From: a virus | IMG/VR virus record: IMGVR_UViG_3300042878_001826 | Coordinates: 64,001-128,000 of that record | Strand: one strand, 5' to 3' | Length of the DNA: 64,000 nt | Shown: piece by piece, positions 10,604 through 61,175 of the stretch | Layout of the letters: each line of letters begins with the position of its first letter | Position numbering within the stretch: position 1 is the first letter of the stretch | The notes under the pieces: generated by a model | What the model saw: the letters and a program-made list of their open reading frames with translations, nothing else | Told to the model about the DNA's origin: nothing | Database searches by the model: none | Made by a program: the position numbers and the translations under genes

Positions 10604-12730
10604 TTATTCGTCTTTTTTCTTTCTTACCTTTTTGACTGGCTTTTCAAGAATAACAAATGACTTATCGTCTTCTTTGTTGTAGTCCATTAAGAAACTTGTT
10701 CCTTCTTTAGGATTGTTCTCAATGATATAGTCAGTGATGATATCATCAACCCATCTTTGAATGGCTCTCTTTAAAGGTCGAGCACCATACTTAGGATCAT
10801 ATCCTACTTCTACCAAATGCTCTTTTAAAGCTTCTGTGATTTGTGTAGGGTATCCAATGTCTGAAGCTCTTTTGATAGTCTTAACAAGCTCAAGATCTAC
10901 GATTTTAAGAATCTCTTCTTTACCTAAATCTTTGAAGTAGATAATCTCGTCAAGTCTGTTAATGAACTCAGGAGCAAACTTGTTTTTAAGTTCTTTCTCT
11001 AAAATTCCTTTAATCTCTTCTTCTCTTACGTTTTCTTTGTTCTTCGTAGAGAATCCAACACCAGTTCCAAAGTCTTTTATCAATTTAGTTCCTACGTTAG
11101 AAGTCATCAAAATGATACAGTTTTTAAAACTTACCTTTCTTCCGTGTGAATCTGTTACGTGGCCGTCATCTAACATTTGAAGAAAGATGTTGAATACTTC
11201 AGGATGTGCTTTCTCAATCTCATCAAAAAGAACTACTGAATAAGGTTTTCTTCTGATTCTATCAAGAACATTTGCGTCATCGTATCCAACGTATCCAGGT
11301 GCAGAACCTTGTATTTTAGAGATAGATATTTTATCCATATACTCAGACATATCTAATCTAATCAAAGAATCTTCTGAATCGAATAAGTATTTAGCAATCT
11401 GTTTAGCTAACTCAGTCTTACCAACACCAGAGTTTCCAATAAGCATTCCACTAAAAACTGGTTTGTTTTCGTCTTTCATACCAACACGACCTCTTTGAAT
11501 AGCTCTAACGACTTTCTTAACAGCTTCGTCTTGACCAACAACTTTACCAGAGATTTCAGTTCCCATCTTAGCAAGTCTTGTGTTTTCTTTCTCACCAACT
11601 TTCTGTAATGGAATACCAGTCATCATAGAAACAACTTCAGCAACATTGTCTTCAGTAACAGTTTGTCTGTTTCTAGAAGATTCGTCTTCCCAATCTTTTC
11701 TAGCTTTCTCTAAACTCTCATTAAGTTGACGTTCAACGTCTCTTAATTTAGCAGCTTCTTCATACTTTTGAGAACGGATAACTTCGTTCTTTTTATCTTT
11801 GATGTCAGAAATCTTTTTCTCGATATCTGTAATCTCTTTAGGAACTACAATGTTAGAGATATGAACTCTTGATCCAGCTTCATCTAAAGCATCAATCGCT
11901 TTGTCTGGTAAGAATCTGTCGGTCATATATCTACTTGTTAAATCAACACAAGCTTTGATTGCTTCTGGTGTGTATTCAACATTGTGGTGTGATTCGTATT
12001 TGTCTTTGATGTTATTCAAAATTTCCATACTTTCTTCCGGAGAAGCAGCTTCGATGATTACTTTTTGAAATCTTCTTTCTAAAGCACCATCTTTCTCAAT
12101 GTGTTTTCTGTACTCATCAAGAGTAGTAGCACCAATGATTTGTATCTCACCTCTAGCCAATGCTGGCTTGAACATATTACTAGCATCCATAGAACCTGAA
12201 GCACCACCTGCACCAATCATAGTGTGAATCTCATCGATGAAAAGAATCACATCAGGATTTTTCTCCATCTCTCCCATAAGAGCTTTGATTCTTTCTTCAA
12301 ACTGACCTCTGTATTTAGTACCGGCAACCATAGAAGCTAAGTCTAACATAACAACTCTTTTGTTAAAAAGAATTCTACTAACTTTTCTTTGTATAATTCT
12401 AAGTGCCAATCCTTCTGCTACAGAAGATTTACCAACACCTGGCTCTCCTATTAAGATAGGGTTGTTCTTTTTTCTTCTCGCCAAGATTTGAGAAACTCTT
12501 TCGATTTCTTTCTCACGTCCTACGATAGGATCAAGTTTTCCTTCTTCTGCCATCTTCGTAAGATCACGGCTATAAGTATCCAATACTGGAGTCTTTGTCT
12601 TAGCATCGGTCTTTTTGTTTCCTGAACTGTAAGAAGATTTTTCATCGTCGTCGTCGTCATCTATCGCAGACTTGATGTTAGGCAGCCTTTTAAGGTATTC
12701 GCTGTCTTCTGATTTTTTATTTTTTCCCAT
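10604..12730 (-). CDS. clpC: ATP-dependent Clp protease ATPase subunit, ClpC-like, lacking the N-terminal Clp-repeat domain
   Basis: Two AAA+ modules ([14 protein letters not shown]; [14 protein letters not shown]); UVR motif [11 protein letters not shown]; VGF ClpP-docking loop; GARPLKR. Confidence 0.9.
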
Positions 12731-19595: not shown

Positions 19596-19647
19596 ATATC
19601 AAAGATAAGGAATATTTTTCGAGTAACAAAATTTAATATATAAACTT

Positions 19648-26884: not shown

Positions 26885-26919
26885 AGTGTTTTATTTTAAA
26901 CAAAGATAAGGAATGTTTG

Positions 26920-34354: not shown

Positions 34355-34398
34355 AATATATTGTTTTAAGTTTGTTTTACAAATATAAGGACAATATT

Positions 34399-37196: not shown

Positions 37197-37265
37197 AGTT
37201 GTCGTCGTTTGTTTTACAAATATAAGAATTATTTATTGATAAAACTATTTTTTTATAAATTATTA

Positions 37266-39948: not shown

Positions 39949-41181
39949 CTATCCAAAAAGGTCTCCTGCGTCCGTAGCATCTGTGAAGCCATTTGTGTCA
40001 TCTTCTTCATCATCTTCTCCAACTATCTTGTTGAATTCGTTTTCTACCTCTTCGATCTCGTCTAATGACTTGAATCTAAAGTAGTCGTTTACAATCGGTG
40101 CCATTCTATCTAAGACGCCTGTTGTGAAAACCTCTTGTGAGAATAGTTGTTTTGTAGTAACTGATTTGTTTAGGTGTGATACATACCATCTGTTTCCTCC
40201 AGGTACAAAAGTCATTTCACCAGTAGCTTTGTTTACATCCATTTTACCCTTAGCAATACCAATCTGATCCATATACTCTGGTCTACAAAAAGCATCTAAT
40301 CCTGTATAAGGGTTCATACCATTTGCAAAAGAGATATCAAATCTAATTTTCTTTGGTTTGGCCATTCTGTTTTTTGCAGTTTTAAACAATACAGAGATTC
40401 CTGATTGACCTAAGTCCATATCATCTTCTTCACCTGTTTTCAATTTTGATTTAGACATAAAGCCGATTACTGATGCAGAGTATAACAAACCATTACCACC
40501 TTTTAATTTCTCTTGTGGAAAAAGGTCCATTGTTAGATAAGTGTGGTTACATACAATCATTGGAATATCTAAGTATCCTAAGTCTGTGTTGATTGAACGG
40601 AACATAGAACCTAATGCTTTTGCTTTAGTCATATCCTGTTTGATATCACCTTTCAATAAATCTGCCTTTTCTTTGTTACTTGCCATTTGACCTAAAGAGT
40701 CTAATACAATCATTAGTTTAGGCAGTTCAAATCCTGCAAGCTTTTGTTCTTTCAAATCATCTATCAACTGAGTCAATAACATGTTTACATCTTCTACTTT
40801 GTTAGATCTGATTAATCTGAACTTTTCCAAAGAGTTGTCGATTCCAAACTTTGGTAAGTCTTCTAAGTCAATCGCTTGTTCTGTATCGATATAGATTACC
40901 GAATATCCGGCTCTCTGTGCGTGCTTTGATACTGAATAAGCGATGAACGATTTACCTGCACCGGATTCTCCAGCGAATGCCGTGATTCTGTTTGATGCAA
41001 CTCCACCACCTAGCAATCTTCCTGATAGTGCGGCGTCTAATAAATAAACTCCTGTTGTGATGAATGTTTTTTCTTTAATTTCCTTTTCTATTAAGATTGG
41101 AATAGATTTAGCTATGTTGTCTAATATAGAACCAACTTTGCTGAATTCGAATTTCTTTCCTTCTTTTACTGCTTTTGCCAT
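39949..41181 (-). CDS. uvsX: RecA/UvsX family recombinase
   Basis: GESGAGKS Walker A; YIDTE; IVLDS; NHTY; GG.GL.Y.AS; KNR. Confidence 0.9.
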   Translation of the reverse strand: MAKAVKEGKKFEFSKVGSILDNIAKSIPILIEKEIKEKTFITTGVYLLDAALSGRLLGGGVASNRITAFAGESGAGKSFIAYSVSKHAQRAGYSVIYIDTEQAIDLEDLPKFGIDNSLEKFRLIRSNKVEDVNMLLTQLIDDLKEQKLAGFELPKLMIVLDSLGQMASNKEKADLLKGDIKQDMTKAKALGSMFRSINTDLGYLDIPMIVCNHTYLTMDLFPQEKLKGGNGLLYSASVIGFMSKSKLKTGEEDDMDLGQSGISVLFKTAKNRMAKPKKIRFDISFANGMNPYTGLDAFCRPEYMDQIGIAKGKMDVNKATGEMTFVPGGNRWYVSHLNKSVTTKQLFSQEVFTTGVLDRMAPIVNDYFRFKSLDEIEEVENEFNKIVGEDDEEDDTNGFTDATDAGDLFG

Positions 41182-53624: not shown

Positions 53625-54095
53625 ATGATTACAGAAAAATATGTGTTCTTTTGGAACGGAGTTTTCTCGCAATGGTATCCATCTAAATTCATTATAGAAG
53701 AAGTTGAGTACAACTGTTGTGAACAATATATGATGGCTCAGAAAGCTTTGCTTTTCAATGATGTAGAAAGTCATAAGATGATTATGTACTCAAAGAGTCC
53801 TGATGAGCAAAAAGGATTTGGTCGTAGAGTAAAAGGATTCGACAAAGACAAATGGGAAGCTATCTGTCGCCAGGTTGTATTCGATGCAAATATGGCGAAG
53901 TTCACACAGAATCCTAAAATGTTGGAAGAACTTATGTACACTGATGATCTTGAGATTGTGGAAGCTAGTCCTTATGACAAGATTTGGGGAATCGGATTGC
54001 ATGAGACAGACGCGAGATGTTTAGATAAGTCTCAATGGCAAGGAACGAATTGGCTTGGAGAAGCAATAATGAGTGTTAGAGAAAAACTAAGATAA
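53625..54095 (+). CDS. NADAR (YbiA/DUF1768) family protein
   Basis: FSQWY; EQYMMAQKA; GRRVKGF; KFTQN; EASPYDKIWGIG; G.N.LG. Confidence 0.92.
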   Translation: MITEKYVFFWNGVFSQWYPSKFIIEEVEYNCCEQYMMAQKALLFNDVESHKMIMYSKSPDEQKGFGRRVKGFDKDKWEAICRQVVFDANMAKFTQNPKMLEELMYTDDLEIVEASPYDKIWGIGLHETDARCLDKSQWQGTNWLGEAIMSVREKLR

Positions 54096-54096
54096 T

Positions 54097-54315
54097 ATGG
54101 GAAGTGGAGTTAGTAAGATGTATGATGACTATGATGATTATGAATACATCTGTAAAATGTTAAATGAGAAAACGGTTGGCTTAAGAGAGTTCTTGGATCA
54201 CGAAGAAGAGATTTTGGTCAAGCACGGATTCAAAGACAAATATGACTATTTTCAATATCTGAACCTTCAAGAAGAAAGAGATAAAAAGATAGTGAAAATA
54301 TTGGGCGAATCTTAA
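54097..54315 (+). CDS. hypothetical protein ending RDKKIVKILGES
   Basis: ORF track; motif. Confidence 0.65.
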   Translation: MGSGVSKMYDDYDDYEYICKMLNEKTVGLREFLDHEEEILVKHGFKDKYDYFQYLNLQEERDKKIVKILGES

Positions 54316-54348
54316 AGATTCCTTATCTTTGTTAAAACAAACAGAGAT

Positions 54349-54504
54349 ATGATAGACAACATTGCATACGATATGATAGAGAATCTTGAAGCTTCTAAAA
54401 TGGTAGACTTTTTAAGAATGATGAATGATTATAAAGCTACTCTTCTAATGCAAGAGATAAACAAATCTGAATCAGAAGACTTCTCTGACGATTTACCTTT
54501 TTAA
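54349..54504 (+). CDS. 51-aa peptide ending in the SSB-like acidic tail SEDFSDDLPF (not in ORF track)
   Basis: Translated by hand; has its own TATCTTTG box at 54324-54331. Confidence 0.7.
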   Translation: MIDNIAYDMIENLEASKMVDFLRMMNDYKATLLMQEINKSESEDFSDDLPF

Positions 54505-55658
54505 TTCGGTAAATCGTATTTTAGATTTATAGAGGTATCAACTCCATAATTCTTCAAAGCTATATGACCATCACCACAATTATTACAGATTACTTTAATA
54601 CCCAAATCTCTTTCGAAGCATTTACCTTTGCAGGTTCCACATTCATCATAGCTTCCATCGGTGTAGTGTAACCAATTACAATCCTTCGACGGAAGGTTTG
54701 AAAGAGTATTCTGTTGCTTGTTCAAAAAGCAAAGTGTGTCTACGAATGGTGCTTTGTCTACGTCTCCGTTTAGCTTTACGGTTATTTCTCCATATACATC
54801 TTTACCACCATATACAAACTCAACATTGCTTTTGGTATGACTATTCATATATTTCTTGTATAGGAATCTGTTTTCGTTTGCAAACTTTTTGAATTTTATC
54901 ACATCAGAGTCGTTGTTTGAATATACTCTATCCATGAAAAAATTAGACTCACACGGAGAATTCTTTAGTTTCCAAACCAATGCCCTTCCAGATATCTGGT
55001 CGGTTTCTTTGTCTACTAGTATCAAAAGTTGAACTTTTGTTTCGTTTTGAGTGTATAATTTAAAAGTTTTCTTTCCTTTTTCTGCCATACAAGAACTACC
55101 TAAACTTCCTTTATCACTTAAATATTTTTCGTTATTGTAGTATTTGGCTATTTCTTCTCCTTTTACAAGTCTGAACTCCATGTTGCTGCTTGATTCTGAT
55201 GCTTTGTATGCGTTTACGAAAGCTTCTAATTCACTATCACTTACACTAAACTTTCCTTTCTTACGAAATGTTGTTACGCCAGATGATGTATTTAAAACGT
55301 TTATGATATATTTAACAAGTTTTCCAATCTTCATTTCGGATCTACCCATAGAATATGGCAGTCCTGCATCATATTCAGAATCCCACTCTTCAGGTACTTT
55401 GTTGTTCATCGTAAAGCTGACCATATCTGCTTTGTCTGTAGTGTCGAAGAAGTTCTGAGCTATTTCATCATCTTCTATATACTGTTCGTCTTCTATATAC
55501 TTTCTTATGAATCTAGCAATCTCTGCAGTTTTTCCGTTGTCCAATGACAATTCGAAAAGCTTTCTCAAAAAATCGGATGATGCATGAAGTTGTCCTTCTA
55601 ACATAAGTTTTATTTCTTCGTTAAGCTTTTCTAATATAAACTGGTTATACTTTCTCAT
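54501..55658 (-). CDS. hypothetical late protein, SCM-motif family (paralog of 23221-25005)
   Basis: LGSSCM; GRALVWKL; FMDRVY; PFVDTL; likely start MRKYNQF at 55658. Confidence 0.75.
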   Translation of the reverse strand: MRKYNQFILEKLNEEIKLMLEGQLHASSDFLRKLFELSLDNGKTAEIARFIRKYIEDEQYIEDDEIAQNFFDTTDKADMVSFTMNNKVPEEWDSEYDAGLPYSMGRSEMKIGKLVKYIINVLNTSSGVTTFRKKGKFSVSDSELEAFVNAYKASESSSNMEFRLVKGEEIAKYYNNEKYLSDKGSLGSSCMAEKGKKTFKLYTQNETKVQLLILVDKETDQISGRALVWKLKNSPCESNFFMDRVYSNNDSDVIKFKKFANENRFLYKKYMNSHTKSNVEFVYGGKDVYGEITVKLNGDVDKAPFVDTLCFLNKQQNTLSNLPSKDCNWLHYTDGSYDECGTCKGKCFERDLGIKVICNNCGDGHIALKNYGVDTSINLKYDLPN

Positions 55659-55708
55659 AATGATAAAAATTTTAGTATTTTTGTATATATTAAATAATAA
55701 AAACACTT

Positions 55709-56257
55709 ATGAGAAATAGAGCTCAGCAAACGAATGGTGATAAAGATTGGACTCCATATTTAAGAGACTTCAAGCTAAGTATTATTACTGGCGAACGAGA
55801 AATAAAAATCAGCCAAGAATGTTTAACGATATTCGACGAGCAGTTAGCATTCATCAGAGACGAATTCCCTAATGATATCATAACAGGGTCGCTGGGTCTT
55901 AACATATTTGGCTTTCTGGAACGAGAGATATCAGATATCGACATCTTGATAAAGGATAGAGAAAGATATAGTCAATATAATAGTGGTGAATACTATCGAC
56001 GAACAAAAAACAACGAGCTGGACATGGAACGCAGACTTGGTTATTTGGAAATAAAGCATAGAAAGCGTGGAATCTGGGGCAAGCTTTTCCCTAAGAAATA
56101 TAAAGTAGACTTCTTCGAAGACAAAGGCACGAGATATTCCGAAGTAAAATACAAAGGACATGTCTACAAAGTGCAGCATCCTATAGATATAATAGAAACA
56201 AAAATAACACTCGAAGGTAGCAAGCATTATCGTGATCTTTATTGTATATTCGGATAA
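55709..56257 (+). CDS. Pol-beta-fold nucleotidyltransferase-like protein
   Basis: ITGSLGL; SDIDIL; KVDFF; KH.RD. Confidence 0.65.
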   Translation: MRNRAQQTNGDKDWTPYLRDFKLSIITGEREIKISQECLTIFDEQLAFIRDEFPNDIITGSLGLNIFGFLEREISDIDILIKDRERYSQYNSGEYYRRTKNNELDMERRLGYLEIKHRKRGIWGKLFPKKYKVDFFEDKGTRYSEVKYKGHVYKVQHPIDIIETKITLEGSKHYRDLYCIFG

Positions 56258-56275
56258 TTTACTTATCTTTGTCAT

Positions 56276-56911
56276 ATGAAATACGCAAGCTTTAGATATA
56301 TTTTTCCTCCACGTCCAAAAAATCCAATCCCAAATACAGAGTTGGGTTTTTGGGACAATGGATCTTTGATAGCACAGCCAAAATTAAATGGTTCTAACTG
56401 TCTTATCTTCACCAATGGTGAGAAGCATATTTCTATGAACAGACACAATGGTCGTCTTACAAACTTTCAGTTGAAAGATGATGAAATCAAATCACTTTAT
56501 AAAGGAACAGGTGGATGGACAATCTTGAATGGTGAATATCTTAATAAGAATAAACAGGATGAAAACAGAAAAGCTTTCAACCATAAGTTTGTCATATTCG
56601 ACATTCTTGTAAATGATGGTGATTATCTTGTGGGAAAAACTTTTGAAGAAAGAATCACGTTATTGGATAATATGTTCGGACAGAACGAATGTGAGAAAGA
56701 CTACCTTTATGGTATTTCTGAAAACGTTTACCGTGTTAAGTCATACCAAAATCAGTTCAATATGCTTTATGATACTCTGACACCAATCGATTTGATTGAA
56801 GGTCTTGTTTTAAAAAGAAAGACTGCAAGATTGGAAATGGGTACTTCTGAGTTGAACAACGTGAAGAGTCAAATCAAATGTAGAAAGGAAACAAAAAACT
56901 ATAAATACTAA
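56276..56911 (+). CDS. ATP-dependent ligase-type adenylation domain protein (no OB domain)
   Basis: QPKLNGS (motif I); LNGEY; IFDIL; EGLVLK; KCR. Confidence 0.75.
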   Translation: MKYASFRYIFPPRPKNPIPNTELGFWDNGSLIAQPKLNGSNCLIFTNGEKHISMNRHNGRLTNFQLKDDEIKSLYKGTGGWTILNGEYLNKNKQDENRKAFNHKFVIFDILVNDGDYLVGKTFEERITLLDNMFGQNECEKDYLYGISENVYRVKSYQNQFNMLYDTLTPIDLIEGLVLKRKTARLEMGTSELNNVKSQIKCRKETKNYKY

Positions 56912-58015: not shown

Positions 58016-59420
58016 ATTTGTTTAAAAATCTTAGTAAATCTGATTTGATATCTTTGTTCCATTCTTTATCATCTACATCTCCGTAGTCCGAGAAGTGTGG
58101 TTTAAGTTCATATCCAGTTTTTTCAGTTTTGTAGCAGTATTCGCTGAAGATAGTCTCCAGACTTTCTTGTTCTAAGTCGTCTACCTCAAAATCCTCGATC
58201 CAGTCATCGCTGAAACGTATAAGATAGAAAGTCTCTTCTTCTTTGTATGTTCTCCAGTTTCCGTTTTCGTCTTTATTGAATTTGGACTTCTTCTCCACTT
58301 CTCTTGTTCCTTTTATATATGTGAAGTTGTCGTCGAGTATTTCGTCGAACTCGTCTTTTATCTGTTGTAGGTTTGCCTCTGCATGTGCGTTGGATGCCCA
58401 ATCTCCGTAGGATTGCTTGATATCCGAAAGTATTTCGGAATCGTTAGAAATCTGCTTCAGAGTATTGTAGAATCTTTCTTTAAGAAGATATTCTGTTATA
58501 TCTTTGGTTTTTCTTTCTTCTTTAGTTGACTCTGGTTCTCCTTCTTTGTCTTCTATCATTACTTTTATGGCATCATACACCATGTCGTCGCATTCGTCGC
58601 CTATATAACTAACAAATTCTTCCAATCCACCAGCGTCCTTTATCAAAGCCTTCACGAAGAGAGACTTGTTCTCTTTGTCTAGATAGTATTCAAATAGAGA
58701 GTTAAAATCTGGCTGGTAGTCATTACCACAATAGCTGTCATATATACCCGATCCGTCTATCAGCAGATCCTTATAGTTCGAATCTCTGGAAAGAAGTAGG
58801 TCTGATAAATCTTCGAGGTTGTATTCTACGTATATACTGTCATCTTTTTCTTCGTATCTACTCCAGTCGTAGTATTTTGCAAGCTGTGTCTGTGTTATCT
58901 TTACTGCTTGTTTCTTTTTGACTAAAAATTCTACGTAGCCATCAGCCTCTGTTATGGTAGGTTCTTTACCTTCGACATTGTTCCAAGTCTCTGTAAAGAA
59001 TAAGCCTTCTTTTGCTATTATTCCTTCTATATCACCTATCTCTCCATCATTATCTAATATAGAAATATCACCATCAGCTTCTTCTGCTATTATACTATAA
59101 GCAAACTTTAGATTGTCAGAAACGTCATTGCTTGATACTTTTTCACTTGTGATGAGTATGCTTATTGCCGGTGTATTGTTTCCAGACTCCATCTTCTTTG
59201 TGAATCTTTCCACATAATGTGTTCTACTTTCTTTGTAGTTCCACATTCTTTCCTCTCCAACAAATCCATATCTGACTTCAATCTGATATCCTTCATCTAT
59301 AGATTCTTGGAAGTAGTCTCTTATATCGTCTTCGTCCAACATCCAAGGATTGAATTCCTCTTCCGTCTCTTTTGATTCTTTTATGTAAGAAATAAAATCA
59401 TTCCATCTTTTTATCTTCAT
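58014..59420 (-). CDS. large acidic hypothetical late protein (MKIKRWNDF start)
   Basis: 468 aa; TAATATATA box 4 nt upstream. Confidence 0.75.
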   Translation of the reverse strand: MKIKRWNDFISYIKESKETEEEFNPWMLDEDDIRDYFQESIDEGYQIEVRYGFVGEERMWNYKESRTHYVERFTKKMESGNNTPAISILITSEKVSSNDVSDNLKFAYSIIAEEADGDISILDNDGEIGDIEGIIAKEGLFFTETWNNVEGKEPTITEADGYVEFLVKKKQAVKITQTQLAKYYDWSRYEEKDDSIYVEYNLEDLSDLLLSRDSNYKDLLIDGSGIYDSYCGNDYQPDFNSLFEYYLDKENKSLFVKALIKDAGGLEEFVSYIGDECDDMVYDAIKVMIEDKEGEPESTKEERKTKDITEYLLKERFYNTLKQISNDSEILSDIKQSYGDWASNAHAEANLQQIKDEFDEILDDNFTYIKGTREVEKKSKFNKDENGNWRTYKEEETFYLIRFSDDWIEDFEVDDLEQESLETIFSEYCYKTEKTGYELKPHFSDYGDVDDKEWNKDIKSDLLRFLNK

Positions 59421-59424
59421 TCAT

Positions 59425-59461
59425 TATATATTAAAAATCGACATCTATTTTTTAATATATA
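59425..59461. promoter_or_regulatory. divergent pair of putative late promoters (TAATATATA)
   Basis: One box on each strand (59425-59433 minus, 59453-59461 plus), each 4 nt before an ATG. Confidence 0.7.
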
Positions 59462-59465
59462 TGCT

Positions 59466-61175
59466 ATGAGATATCTAAAACTATACGAAGCGTTTTCATC
59501 TAATACGCTTTCAAAGCTTTATAAGCATCTAAAGAAAAAGAATGCTAGTAATAAAAGTCTTAATCAATTCAAAGAAGACATGGAAGTAATCGCAAAGTCT
59601 TTTGATATTCCTATGGACAAAATATCAGACGAAGATGTTTCTTATATTTCTAGAAGAAAGGCTCTTCCGCTTAGATCGGAAGCAAAGAATGATTCTGGAA
59701 TATGGGCCATAAAATTTTGGTTTGATAAAGACGGAGAATATATCGGTACTTCAGGAACAGGAAACGCAAAGTTTGCTACTTCAAATGTGCCAAGTACTAG
59801 TAGTTATCACAGTAAACCATATTCAAAAGCACAATGGGATAAGATTAAAAAATCAATGACTTTTGGCTTTCCAAAAACTGGGTATTTAATACCTGTACTC
59901 CATGATGAATATGATCAGTTAAAAGATGGTGATGAGGTTATAGTATGTCTTTGTGATGAGGAAGAATATGATGACTATCCAGATTCTAGAGTAGATAGGT
60001 TAGTATGTGGAAAGATATTTGTGGATGGAAACGTATATGTCATACATGACAACGATATCGCGGAAGGATCGGAACCAAGTAATACTCCATCAGAAGAATA
60101 TCCGGACATAGAATGGGGTGAGTATTCCTGGAGTATTGTGAGTATCAATGGAGGTGTAGGTTCCGATCATTTCAACCTTCATAAAGTCATAAAGTCCGAT
60201 ACTCCAATATCTTACTATAGTGAAAAAGTTGATAATGAAGAAGGTAATAATCCTTTTGAATTCAACCTTTCTTTAGAAGAGATAGAAGATAATAAGTTGA
60301 TTCTTTCTGACTGGTCAGGAAACATTGATGAAAAGAATAAAATAGAAAAAGAGGCAGACTTTGCAGTTATTTTATACGTCGATGGTATTCTAAGTAGAGG
60401 ATTGAAAAGTAAATCCGCTACTTCCGAAGAAAGAAAAGAAACTAGAAAAGGAGCAATCGCTTTGATGTCCGACGAAGACTTCAAGCAAGCAAACATAGAG
60501 AAATATCTCAACCAGTTAGTTGAGAAGATTGGAATCACTCCAGAATCAGTGGAGCTTAAGAATCTACAGAAGGTCGCAGCGACTATAATGTCTACTGGAA
60601 TATCAGACTCATATGCACTTTTTTCAATTATGAGTCGAGATTATAGGGCTATAGATAATTTGGCATATCAACTAAAGAGATTGATATCAAGTGTTTCTCT
60701 ACAAAATCCAGAAATGATTAAATTTGTCTACAACGAATTTGCAGGTGATTATAGAAGAACTAAAAAAAATGCGAGTAATGCATATAAATCAAAAAAAGCT
60801 TCAATGGATATGTTAAAAGAAAGAGAATATCTAAAACCTTTATATGATTCTATACTCAGAATAAGTAATAAAATATCCAAAGGAATAGTATCTAAAGAGA
60901 TTACTAGAGGAGAAGATTTAAAAAAGATATTATTCAAACTTGAAAGTATTGAATCAATGATGAGAGATGATGATTTTGAGCTTTCTCGACAGTTCAGAGA
61001 CTTCTCGGAAAATGTAAGATATGGAGTGAGTGATTCCGACATGGTTATAAGAAGACTAGAAAATATGGATGGAGACTATTCTACTTTAACAAACGACAAT
61101 AAGACGACTCTTTTAGAAATGGATCTGAAAAAACTTAAAGAAATAGAATCTTATGTAGATGATATAATGAAATAA
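59466..61175 (+). CDS. large hypothetical late protein with N-terminal MRYLKLYEAF motif
   Basis: 569 aa; late box; motif. Confidence 0.75.
   Translation: MRYLKLYEAFSSNTLSKLYKHLKKKNASNKSLNQFKEDMEVIAKSFDIPMDKISDEDVSYISRRKALPLRSEAKNDSGIWAIKFWFDKDGEYIGTSGTGNAKFATSNVPSTSSYHSKPYSKAQWDKIKKSMTFGFPKTGYLIPVLHDEYDQLKDGDEVIVCLCDEEEYDDYPDSRVDRLVCGKIFVDGNVYVIHDNDIAEGSEPSNTPSEEYPDIEWGEYSWSIVSINGGVGSDHFNLHKVIKSDTPISYYSEKVDNEEGNNPFEFNLSLEEIEDNKLILSDWSGNIDEKNKIEKEADFAVILYVDGILSRGLKSKSATSEERKETRKGAIALMSDEDFKQANIEKYLNQLVEKIGITPESVELKNLQKVAATIMSTGISDSYALFSIMSRDYRAIDNLAYQLKRLISSVSLQNPEMIKFVYNEFAGDYRRTKKNASNAYKSKKASMDMLKEREYLKPLYDSILRISNKISKGIVSKEITRGEDLKKILFKLESIESMMRDDDFELSRQFRDFSENVRYGVSDSDMVIRRLENMDGDYSTLTNDNKTTLLEMDLKKLKEIESYVDDIMK

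Follow-up and report, generated by a model that had tools for sequence, protein, structure and literature searches.

A 51-residue microprotein of T4-like phages ends in a host-type SSB tip

INTRODUCTION

The C-terminal tip of bacterial SSB is a hub that links ssDNA to at least 17 enzymes of replication, recombination and repair, and a 9-residue tip peptide binds SSB partners by itself (PMC7145534). The same hub is an antibacterial target, and synthetic SSB-Ct peptides and mimetics have been pursued as inhibitors (PMC10143822, PMC5872125). Host-type tips are also found on phage proteins. Bas52_0087, which carries two OB folds and ends in FDDDIPF, was described in a study of DRT10 (bioRxiv 10.64898/2026.04.29.721553), and prophage DUF669 proteins carry a host-type tip as well (PMC13687109). 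The literature that we found describes such tips only on phage ssDNA-binding proteins; a full-text search returned no natural case of a stand-alone SSB tip carried by a protein without DNA binding.

Here, we describe a phage gene whose short product ends in the residues DDLPF and has neither an OB fold nor any other recognisable DNA-binding module. The gene lies in a stretch of 64,000 nucleotides (the window), which comprises bases 64001-128000 of a 150,251-bp IMG/VR virus record (33.6% G+C; estimated 61% complete). All coordinates given below are those of the window unless another contig is named.

RESULTS

Anatomy of the gene

A first-pass annotation of the window had called a 51-residue peptide with a DDLPF end, and direct reading of the DNA bore this out exactly. 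The gene and its parts are as follows:

54322-54331, plus strand: promoter-like box CTTATCTTTG, with TAnnTTTG inside, ending 17 nt before the ATG
54349-54504, plus strand: microprotein gene, a 51-codon ATG-initiated ORF and its TAA stop, by direct reading
54349-54465, plus strand: predicted N-terminal helical module, residues 1-39, from AlphaFold2 and conservation
54466-54477, plus strand: short acidic linker, residues 40-43, from variability and low pLDDT
54478-54501, plus strand: extended tip D-F-S-D-D-L-P-F, residues 44-51, from codon selection

The TAA codon directly follows DDLPF, which makes Phe51 the true C-terminus, and the net charge of the microprotein is -8. No longer ORF overlaps the gene on either strand; the sole overlap is that of its stop codon with the stop of a convergent 401-aa ORF (54501-55706, minus strand). 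Among the 1,436 ORFs of at least 25 aa in the 150-kb record, DDLPF followed by a stop occurs once, against a chance expectation of about 8e-4 calculated from the amino-acid composition, and internal DLPF is absent from all long ORFs of the record. RNA contigs from three lake-water libraries span the gene at about 95% identity; strand, transcript start and level are not readable from them, stretches that lack contig cover were left out of account, and DNA carry-over is possible. Judged from its sequence, the gene is real.

The upstream box

The gene had also been credited with a host-type promoter of its own. The box CTTATCTTTG contains TAnnTTTG, the Bacteroidota -7 promoter consensus, and both its presence and its conservation were confirmed: it is kept as CCTTAT[CA]TTTG in 23 of 24 related loci, despite differences in the upstream gene and DNA. 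No conservation of a -33 TTTG element was seen upstream of the box in the 24 related loci compared. TAnnTTTG alone is mildly enriched in the record (134 and 113 copies per strand versus about 104 expected), so that the weight falls entirely on the extended box, CTTATnTTTG, and its conservation. This extended form has just 10 occurrences in the 150-kb record, several of which sit 4 to approximately 20 nt 5' of listed ORF starts. Besides the box of the microprotein gene, its copies include:

56262-56271: copy preceding the start of the ligase-like gene at 56276
19600-19609, minus strand: further copy
37217-37226, minus strand: further copy
26901-26910, minus strand: further copy
34380-34389, minus strand: further copy

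CTTATnTTTG is thus a candidate signature of one promoter class in this phage. For the microprotein gene itself, the box would act as a promoter, and early expression is suggested by the promoter type together with the gene neighbourhood.

Gene neighbourhood

In most long related loci, the microprotein gene holds a fixed position, with a 124-aa ORF on one side and a ligase-like gene (56276-56911) on the other, and in distant relatives it lies directly 5' of the ligase-like gene. Several flanking genes are present in some relatives and absent from others:

53625-54095: NADAR gene
54097-54315: 72-aa ORF
54501-55706, minus strand: 401-aa ORF, Cys-rich and convergent
55709-56257: 182-aa ORF

One RNA-library contig joins 54096 to 54310 and thus represents a strain without the 72-aa gene. 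A small hypervariable islet therefore surrounds a microprotein gene that stays in place. The neighbours encode an RNA ligase, a HAD-like protein, a NADAR protein, a ligase-like protein and a NUDIX protein, and the neighbourhood is of the repair and counter-defence type.

A family within one clade of T4-like phages

Initial scans of genome contigs and viral contigs with a family alignment gave no relative, and the GenBank phage collection held no DNA or protein match. Relatives came from three other searches: a word-indexed search returned 46 protein clusters at 61-100% identity, all of 28-58 aa; an exhaustive profile search returned 17 representatives at the 50% identity level; and a scan of metagenomes gave 26 loci of lake and marine origin, the most divergent at 53% identity. 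A divergent 60-aa homologue was recovered from three IMG/VR contigs (127-191 kb) via the neighbouring ligase-like gene. The family comprises approximately 50 protein clusters and 29 fetched loci, with no longer or fused member found among them, and all members belong to a single clade of T4-like phages larger than 150 kb. The microprotein is missing where the ligase-like protein of a phage is at most 50% identical, which indicates that the family is specific to this clade.

The helical module

AlphaFold2 predicts a single helix over residues 2-46 followed by a coil tail, with a mean pLDDT of 74; the middle of the helix reaches 78-87, and the C-terminal blocks, linker included, average 62 and 53. 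Searches of Pfam, PHROGs, PDB sequences and the ESM Atlas gave no match to the helical module (lowest E-value in the PDB, 0.11). The peptide had been judged too short for an OB fold, and the helix-plus-coil prediction and the lack of a Pfam or PHROG family agree with this. For the SSB family PF00436, a protein of 51 aa with a predicted helix and coil, a net charge of -8 and no Pfam or PHROG match does not qualify; lacking an OB fold and a family match, and with that charge, the microprotein cannot itself be an SSB.

Selection was measured as pN/pS over 20 distinct DNA sequences. The first 38 codons, which cover the helical module, gave a value of 0.20. Two conserved blocks, A-Y-D-M-I-E-N and D-F-L-R-M-M-D-D-Y-K, stand out, and Y7, D8, M9, I10, E11, N12, D20, F21, L22, M24, D27, L32, M34 and N38 are invariant or at least 90% conserved. 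The first-pass annotation had proposed a helical carrier that displays the tail. A predicted helix with a conserved tip matches that description; a passive role fits less well, since the module has many conserved polar residues. Conservation that includes Y7, D8, E11, N12, D20 and D27 fits a partner of the module's own better than a passive carrier, and argues that the module binds something specific or self-assembles. A complex prediction with four copies spoke neither for nor against oligomerisation (score 0.01; mark 0.42). Distant members have a 2-residue insertion at positions 14-15, which hints at a break between two helices.

Conservation of the tip

Whether homologs keep the terminal Pro-Phe had been named as a check on the mimicry proposal. 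Of 25 fetched sequences, 24 retain the tip, as do at least 90% of the clusters. Over the five DDLPF codons, pS is 0.88 and pN is 0.008; that is, the synonymous sites are saturated and the residues almost fixed. The last 8 codons gave a pN/pS of 0.07. Even the most distant tailed members retain D-L-P-F, ending in NDLPF or LDLPF, and most fetched loci have a hydrophobic residue (F, L, V or I) at position -7. The linker varies in sequence, and the stretch from helix to tip is up to approximately 9 residues longer in relatives.

There are exceptions. One lineage (P0034, P0038 and P0041) ends in DDLPL, and two clusters end in DDLSF. In two members, the stop is read through, which adds 2-5 residues to DDLPF; one of these strains (L016:491-661) carries DDLPF followed by KWKRR. 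Three distant members (P0056, P0060 and P0061) keep the helical module and stop in the linker, without the tip, and four members look frameshifted. These exceptions may be errors or decay.

The phage and its inferred host

This T4-like phage encodes a gp32-type SSB (G000 58885-59850, just outside the window), a UvsX-like recombinase at 39952-41181, topoisomerase II subunits and a ribonucleotide reductase (RNR). The window also encodes a 708-aa protein (10607-12730, minus strand) that matches phrog_4871, an ATP-dependent protease, with an E-value of 4e-231 and has AAA+ features. The gp32 homologue ends in DEDDFFADI, and PF00436 SSB has no match anywhere in the phage record; together, these two results indicate that the tip of the microprotein does not copy the phage's own SSB.

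Flavobacteriales is the probable host order, to judge from the origin in lake water, the type of promoter and NrdB, for which the phage protein shares 73-81% identity with its counterparts in that order (Crocinitomicaceae, Salibacteraceae, Fluviicola and Flavobacterium). Five Flavobacteriales genomes were used for comparison, and this choice depends on the putative host assignment. The main SSB ends in DDLPF in four of the five and in NDLPF in the fifth. A pattern search for DDLPF followed by a stop gave 11 matches in the five genomes, 2-3 per genome, compared with one for a control pattern; five matches fall on SSBs, another five on OB-fold proteins of the DUF3127 type, and the last lies out of frame. 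With 10 of 11 matches on SSB or DUF3127 proteins, the motif is diagnostic of SSB-type proteins in the host lineage.

The microprotein thus terminates in an acidic run and [IL]-P-F, the carboxylate of its last Phe being free; ahead of this end lies a flexible linker with little conservation; and the end matches the SSB tip of the likely host order. By these features, it is a bona fide SSB-Ct-type motif. The first reading of the peptide as an SSB tail mimic is therefore supported at the sequence level by a tip that is nearly invariant, under purifying selection, identical to that of the host SSB and unlike that of the phage's gp32-type SSB.

Tips and tip readers in Flavobacteriales

The DUF3127-like proteins (120-132 aa, not PF00436) end in DDLPF in all five genomes (L253, L255, L256, L257 and L259) and represent a second chromosomal carrier of the SSB tip. 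Two genomes have SSB-family paralogues (L128 1423-1926, plus strand; L129 1369-1821, minus strand) that end in LDDFT(L/M)xEDDF, not DDLPF. The replicative helicase DnaB has an acidic tail tipped with x-P-F in all five genomes (DDAPF, EEPPF, DETPF, SDMPF and EDPF; L270-L273 and L275). A wider docking code based on Pro-Phe tips may hence exist in Flavobacteriales, with a set of readers broader than that of SSB alone.

The chi subunit and exonuclease I (ExoI) are two textbook readers of the SSB tip in E. coli. Neither was found in any of the five Flavobacteriales genomes, whereas PriA and RecQ are present in all five. Of the partners that had been proposed for the microprotein, PriA and RecQ thus stand, and ExoI, along with chi among the unnamed others, drops out. 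RecJ, RecO, RecG, primase and others are plausible readers in the host lineage.

DDLPF ends on other viral proteins

We collected 50 distinct phage proteins ending in F-x-DDLPF: 12 are SSBs, six are gp32-type, two are DUF3127, one is DUF669, and roughly half fall into no Pfam family. The possibility that the helical module is the end of another such protein was rejected, as a profile run against the 50 proteins matched the tip only. The six gp32-type proteins (PF08804; 271-282 aa; L147, L152, L175, L140, L151 and L179; G+C 0.29-0.37) are not close to the gp32 of this phage by BLASTP, and they indicate that, in some T4-like phages, gp32 itself bears the host tip in cis.

Twelve viral contigs (L134, L146, L149, L150, L155, L157, L172, L195, L204, L206, L208 and L167) contain an ORF of 29 aa, once 45 aa, in which a hydrophobic, membrane-like helix ends in F-E-D-D-L-P-F (e.g., L150:7068-7157, minus strand). 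A 57-aa ORF on another contig (L196, 8226-8399, minus strand) combines a hydrophobic helix with a Gly-rich linker and an NDDLPF end. The hydrophobic-helix ORFs could encode SSB tips tethered to the membrane, but they may also be spurious, as the ORFs around them on the same strand resemble non-coding frames.

DISCUSSION

A proposed decoy of the host SSB tip

The microprotein probably diverts or borrows enzymes that host SSB recruits. Because the host SSB tip is copied exactly and under strong selection, the linker is flexible and a DNA-binding fold is absent, SSB-reading pockets are likely to recognise this tip too, and this is the part of our proposal in which we have good confidence. As to what such reading would achieve, we favour a decoy, specifically as a tentative choice that falls short of probable. 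The microprotein, translated and probably early, would consist of a helical module of approximately 40 residues, a flexible acidic linker and a copy of the host SSB-Ct. Its free D-D-L-P-F carboxy-terminus would insert into the SSB-reading pockets of host genome-maintenance proteins, which in the host lineage plausibly include PriA and RecQ. Occupied pockets would uncouple these readers from SSB-coated ssDNA. Restart of replication and repair in the host would be crippled as a result, and the replication and recombination intermediates that the phage forms with gp32 and UvsX would be shielded from host helicases and nucleases. Within this scheme, we infer the binding to SSB partners, the net inhibition and the early expression. 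Blocking the host SSB hub need not harm the phage, because it has its own UvsX-like recombinase, topoisomerase II and gp32.

A single, monovalent SSB tip binds its partners weakly, with micromolar affinity, and a decoy would accordingly need a high copy number or oligomerisation. The module is also far more conserved, in its pN/pS and in its polar residues, than a passive carrier needs, which suggests a second specific interaction; an adaptor would fit this observation equally well.

Alternative readings

As an adaptor, the microprotein would bind a phage protein or a second host protein through its module and recruit a host SSB-interacting enzyme in trans through its tip, giving a phage machine without the host code, for example gp32-coated ssDNA or the adjoining ligase-like enzyme, access to host helicases, nucleases or primase. 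The strong constraint on the module and its conserved polar residues are what such a role would predict, and the three distant members that keep the module without the tip suggest that it may have a function of its own. The same tip is fused to working proteins in other phages, as the 50 F-x-DDLPF proteins illustrate, and the authors who described phage SSB-like proteins bearing a host-type tip propose that these make contact with DNA-processing factors of the host (bioRxiv 10.64898/2026.04.29.721553; PMC13687109). The ligase-like gene directly 3' of the microprotein gene in distant relatives points the same way; however, the genes between the two come and go. A complementary pattern between gp32 tails and microprotein presence was sought and not found in the relatives compared: gp32 is without DLPF both in a microprotein-bearing relative and in a distant phage that lacks the microprotein. 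We regard the adaptor as possible, yet on the unlikely side.

The microprotein might instead act as a decoy or plug for a host anti-phage system that reads, or is restrained by, the SSB tip or an SSB partner. Several defence systems, among them Retron-Eco8, DRT4 and DARNA, have links to SSBs or to partners of SSB, DRT10 is under the control of ExoI together with a phage SSB-like protein with a host-type tip, and the variable islet holds candidate counter-defence or repair genes (NADAR, RNA ligase, ligase-like and NUDIX). The described systems, however, sense phage SSB bound to ssDNA rather than a free tip, DARNA is indifferent to loss of the terminal Phe of the T7 SSB, and an SSB-linked system is not known from Flavobacteriales hosts. 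Retention throughout the clade, in lake and marine samples alike, is more in keeping with a target in the core of the host than with a defence gene of sporadic occurrence, and we consider a role against defence improbable.

Acidic tails are established to bind back onto their own OB cores in E. coli SSB and T4 gp32. The same holds for T7 gp2.5 (PMC10359462), and the very acidic microprotein (net charge -8) might act likewise on the OB folds of host SSB or phage gp32 and tune their ssDNA binding, for example by stripping host SSB. Such back-binding is largely electrostatic, whereas pockets need residue identity, and selection here acts on the exact D-L-P-F, not on charge alone; an action on OB folds is thus, if anything, a shade less credible than one on a defence system.

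The microprotein also has the C-terminal L-P-F that is the ClpXP degron at the end of SsbA in Streptococcus mutans (PMC5143411). Read by ClpXP or by a phage AAA+ protease, for which the protease-like protein at 10607-12730 is a candidate, such a tag would give the microprotein a short life or saturate the protease. According to the same paper, ClpXP recognition of LPF depends on the strain and is absent in other bacteria (PMC5143411), and a degradation tag would leave the two conserved Asp residues and the identity with the host SSB tip unexplained, which makes it a very unlikely explanation. Mimicry of the tail of the RNR small subunit, in competition for the large subunit, was rejected as barely credible: R2 tail peptides are classic RNR inhibitors, and the record has a single further acidic protein with a terminal Phe, namely the phage NrdB (ending in NMDDDF), but host NrdB ends in (I/F)(S/T)FDADF in 14 of 14 readable loci, where Pro is absent from position -2 and Leu from position -3, neither the host nor the phage NrdB tail has L-P-F, and the microprotein matches SSB at five of five residues.

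Implications

To our knowledge, motif mimicry, which is well known in eukaryotic viruses, is hardly documented in phages. A natural, genetically encoded free tip would show phages attacking or exploiting the SSB hub by this means. Going beyond the single family and the decoy reading, we suggest, more speculatively still, that "tip-display" microproteins, i.e., stand-alone copies of the host SSB tip on small unrelated carriers (a helix in this family and, as our viral scan suggests, others elsewhere), may silence or redirect the entire SSB interactome of the host at an early stage of infection. If true, they would constitute an undescribed class of host-takeover factors and a natural precedent for SSB-Ct-mimetic antibacterials. 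The family supplies a 51-residue reagent with a built-in control, namely removal or change of Phe51, which could help to identify the SSB partners of importance in Bacteroidota, a group whose interactome is mostly unmapped and in which ExoI and chi are apparently missing. The x-P-F tail of DnaB in the host order further raises the question of whether the phage disturbs a broader Pro-Phe tip code.

Comparison with known systems

With the SSB-Ct of Flavobacteriales, the microprotein shares the last five residues, the free Phe, the acidic run and the flexible linker ahead of the tip, and with that of E. coli SSB (MDFDDDIPF) it shares a hydrophobic residue at position -7. Unlike SSB, it lacks an OB fold and an ssDNA-binding domain, and homology to SSB is not detectable beyond the tip, which here sits on a predicted acidic helix of approximately 40 residues. 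It resembles Bas52_0087 and the DUF669, gp32-type and DUF3127 proteins, in which a phage protein other than a canonical SSB shows the host docking tip; those proteins, however, bind ssDNA, whereas the microprotein has no DNA-binding module and its tip would be free or held on a partner. The acidic tails of T4 gp32 and T7 gp2.5, the latter ending in Phe, organise replisome contacts; they address phage partners, not the host, and the gp32 tail of this phage is unlike the end of the microprotein. Synthetic SSB-Ct mimetics work by the same principle of competition as the decoy that we propose, while the microprotein is natural and adds a conserved helical module to the tip.
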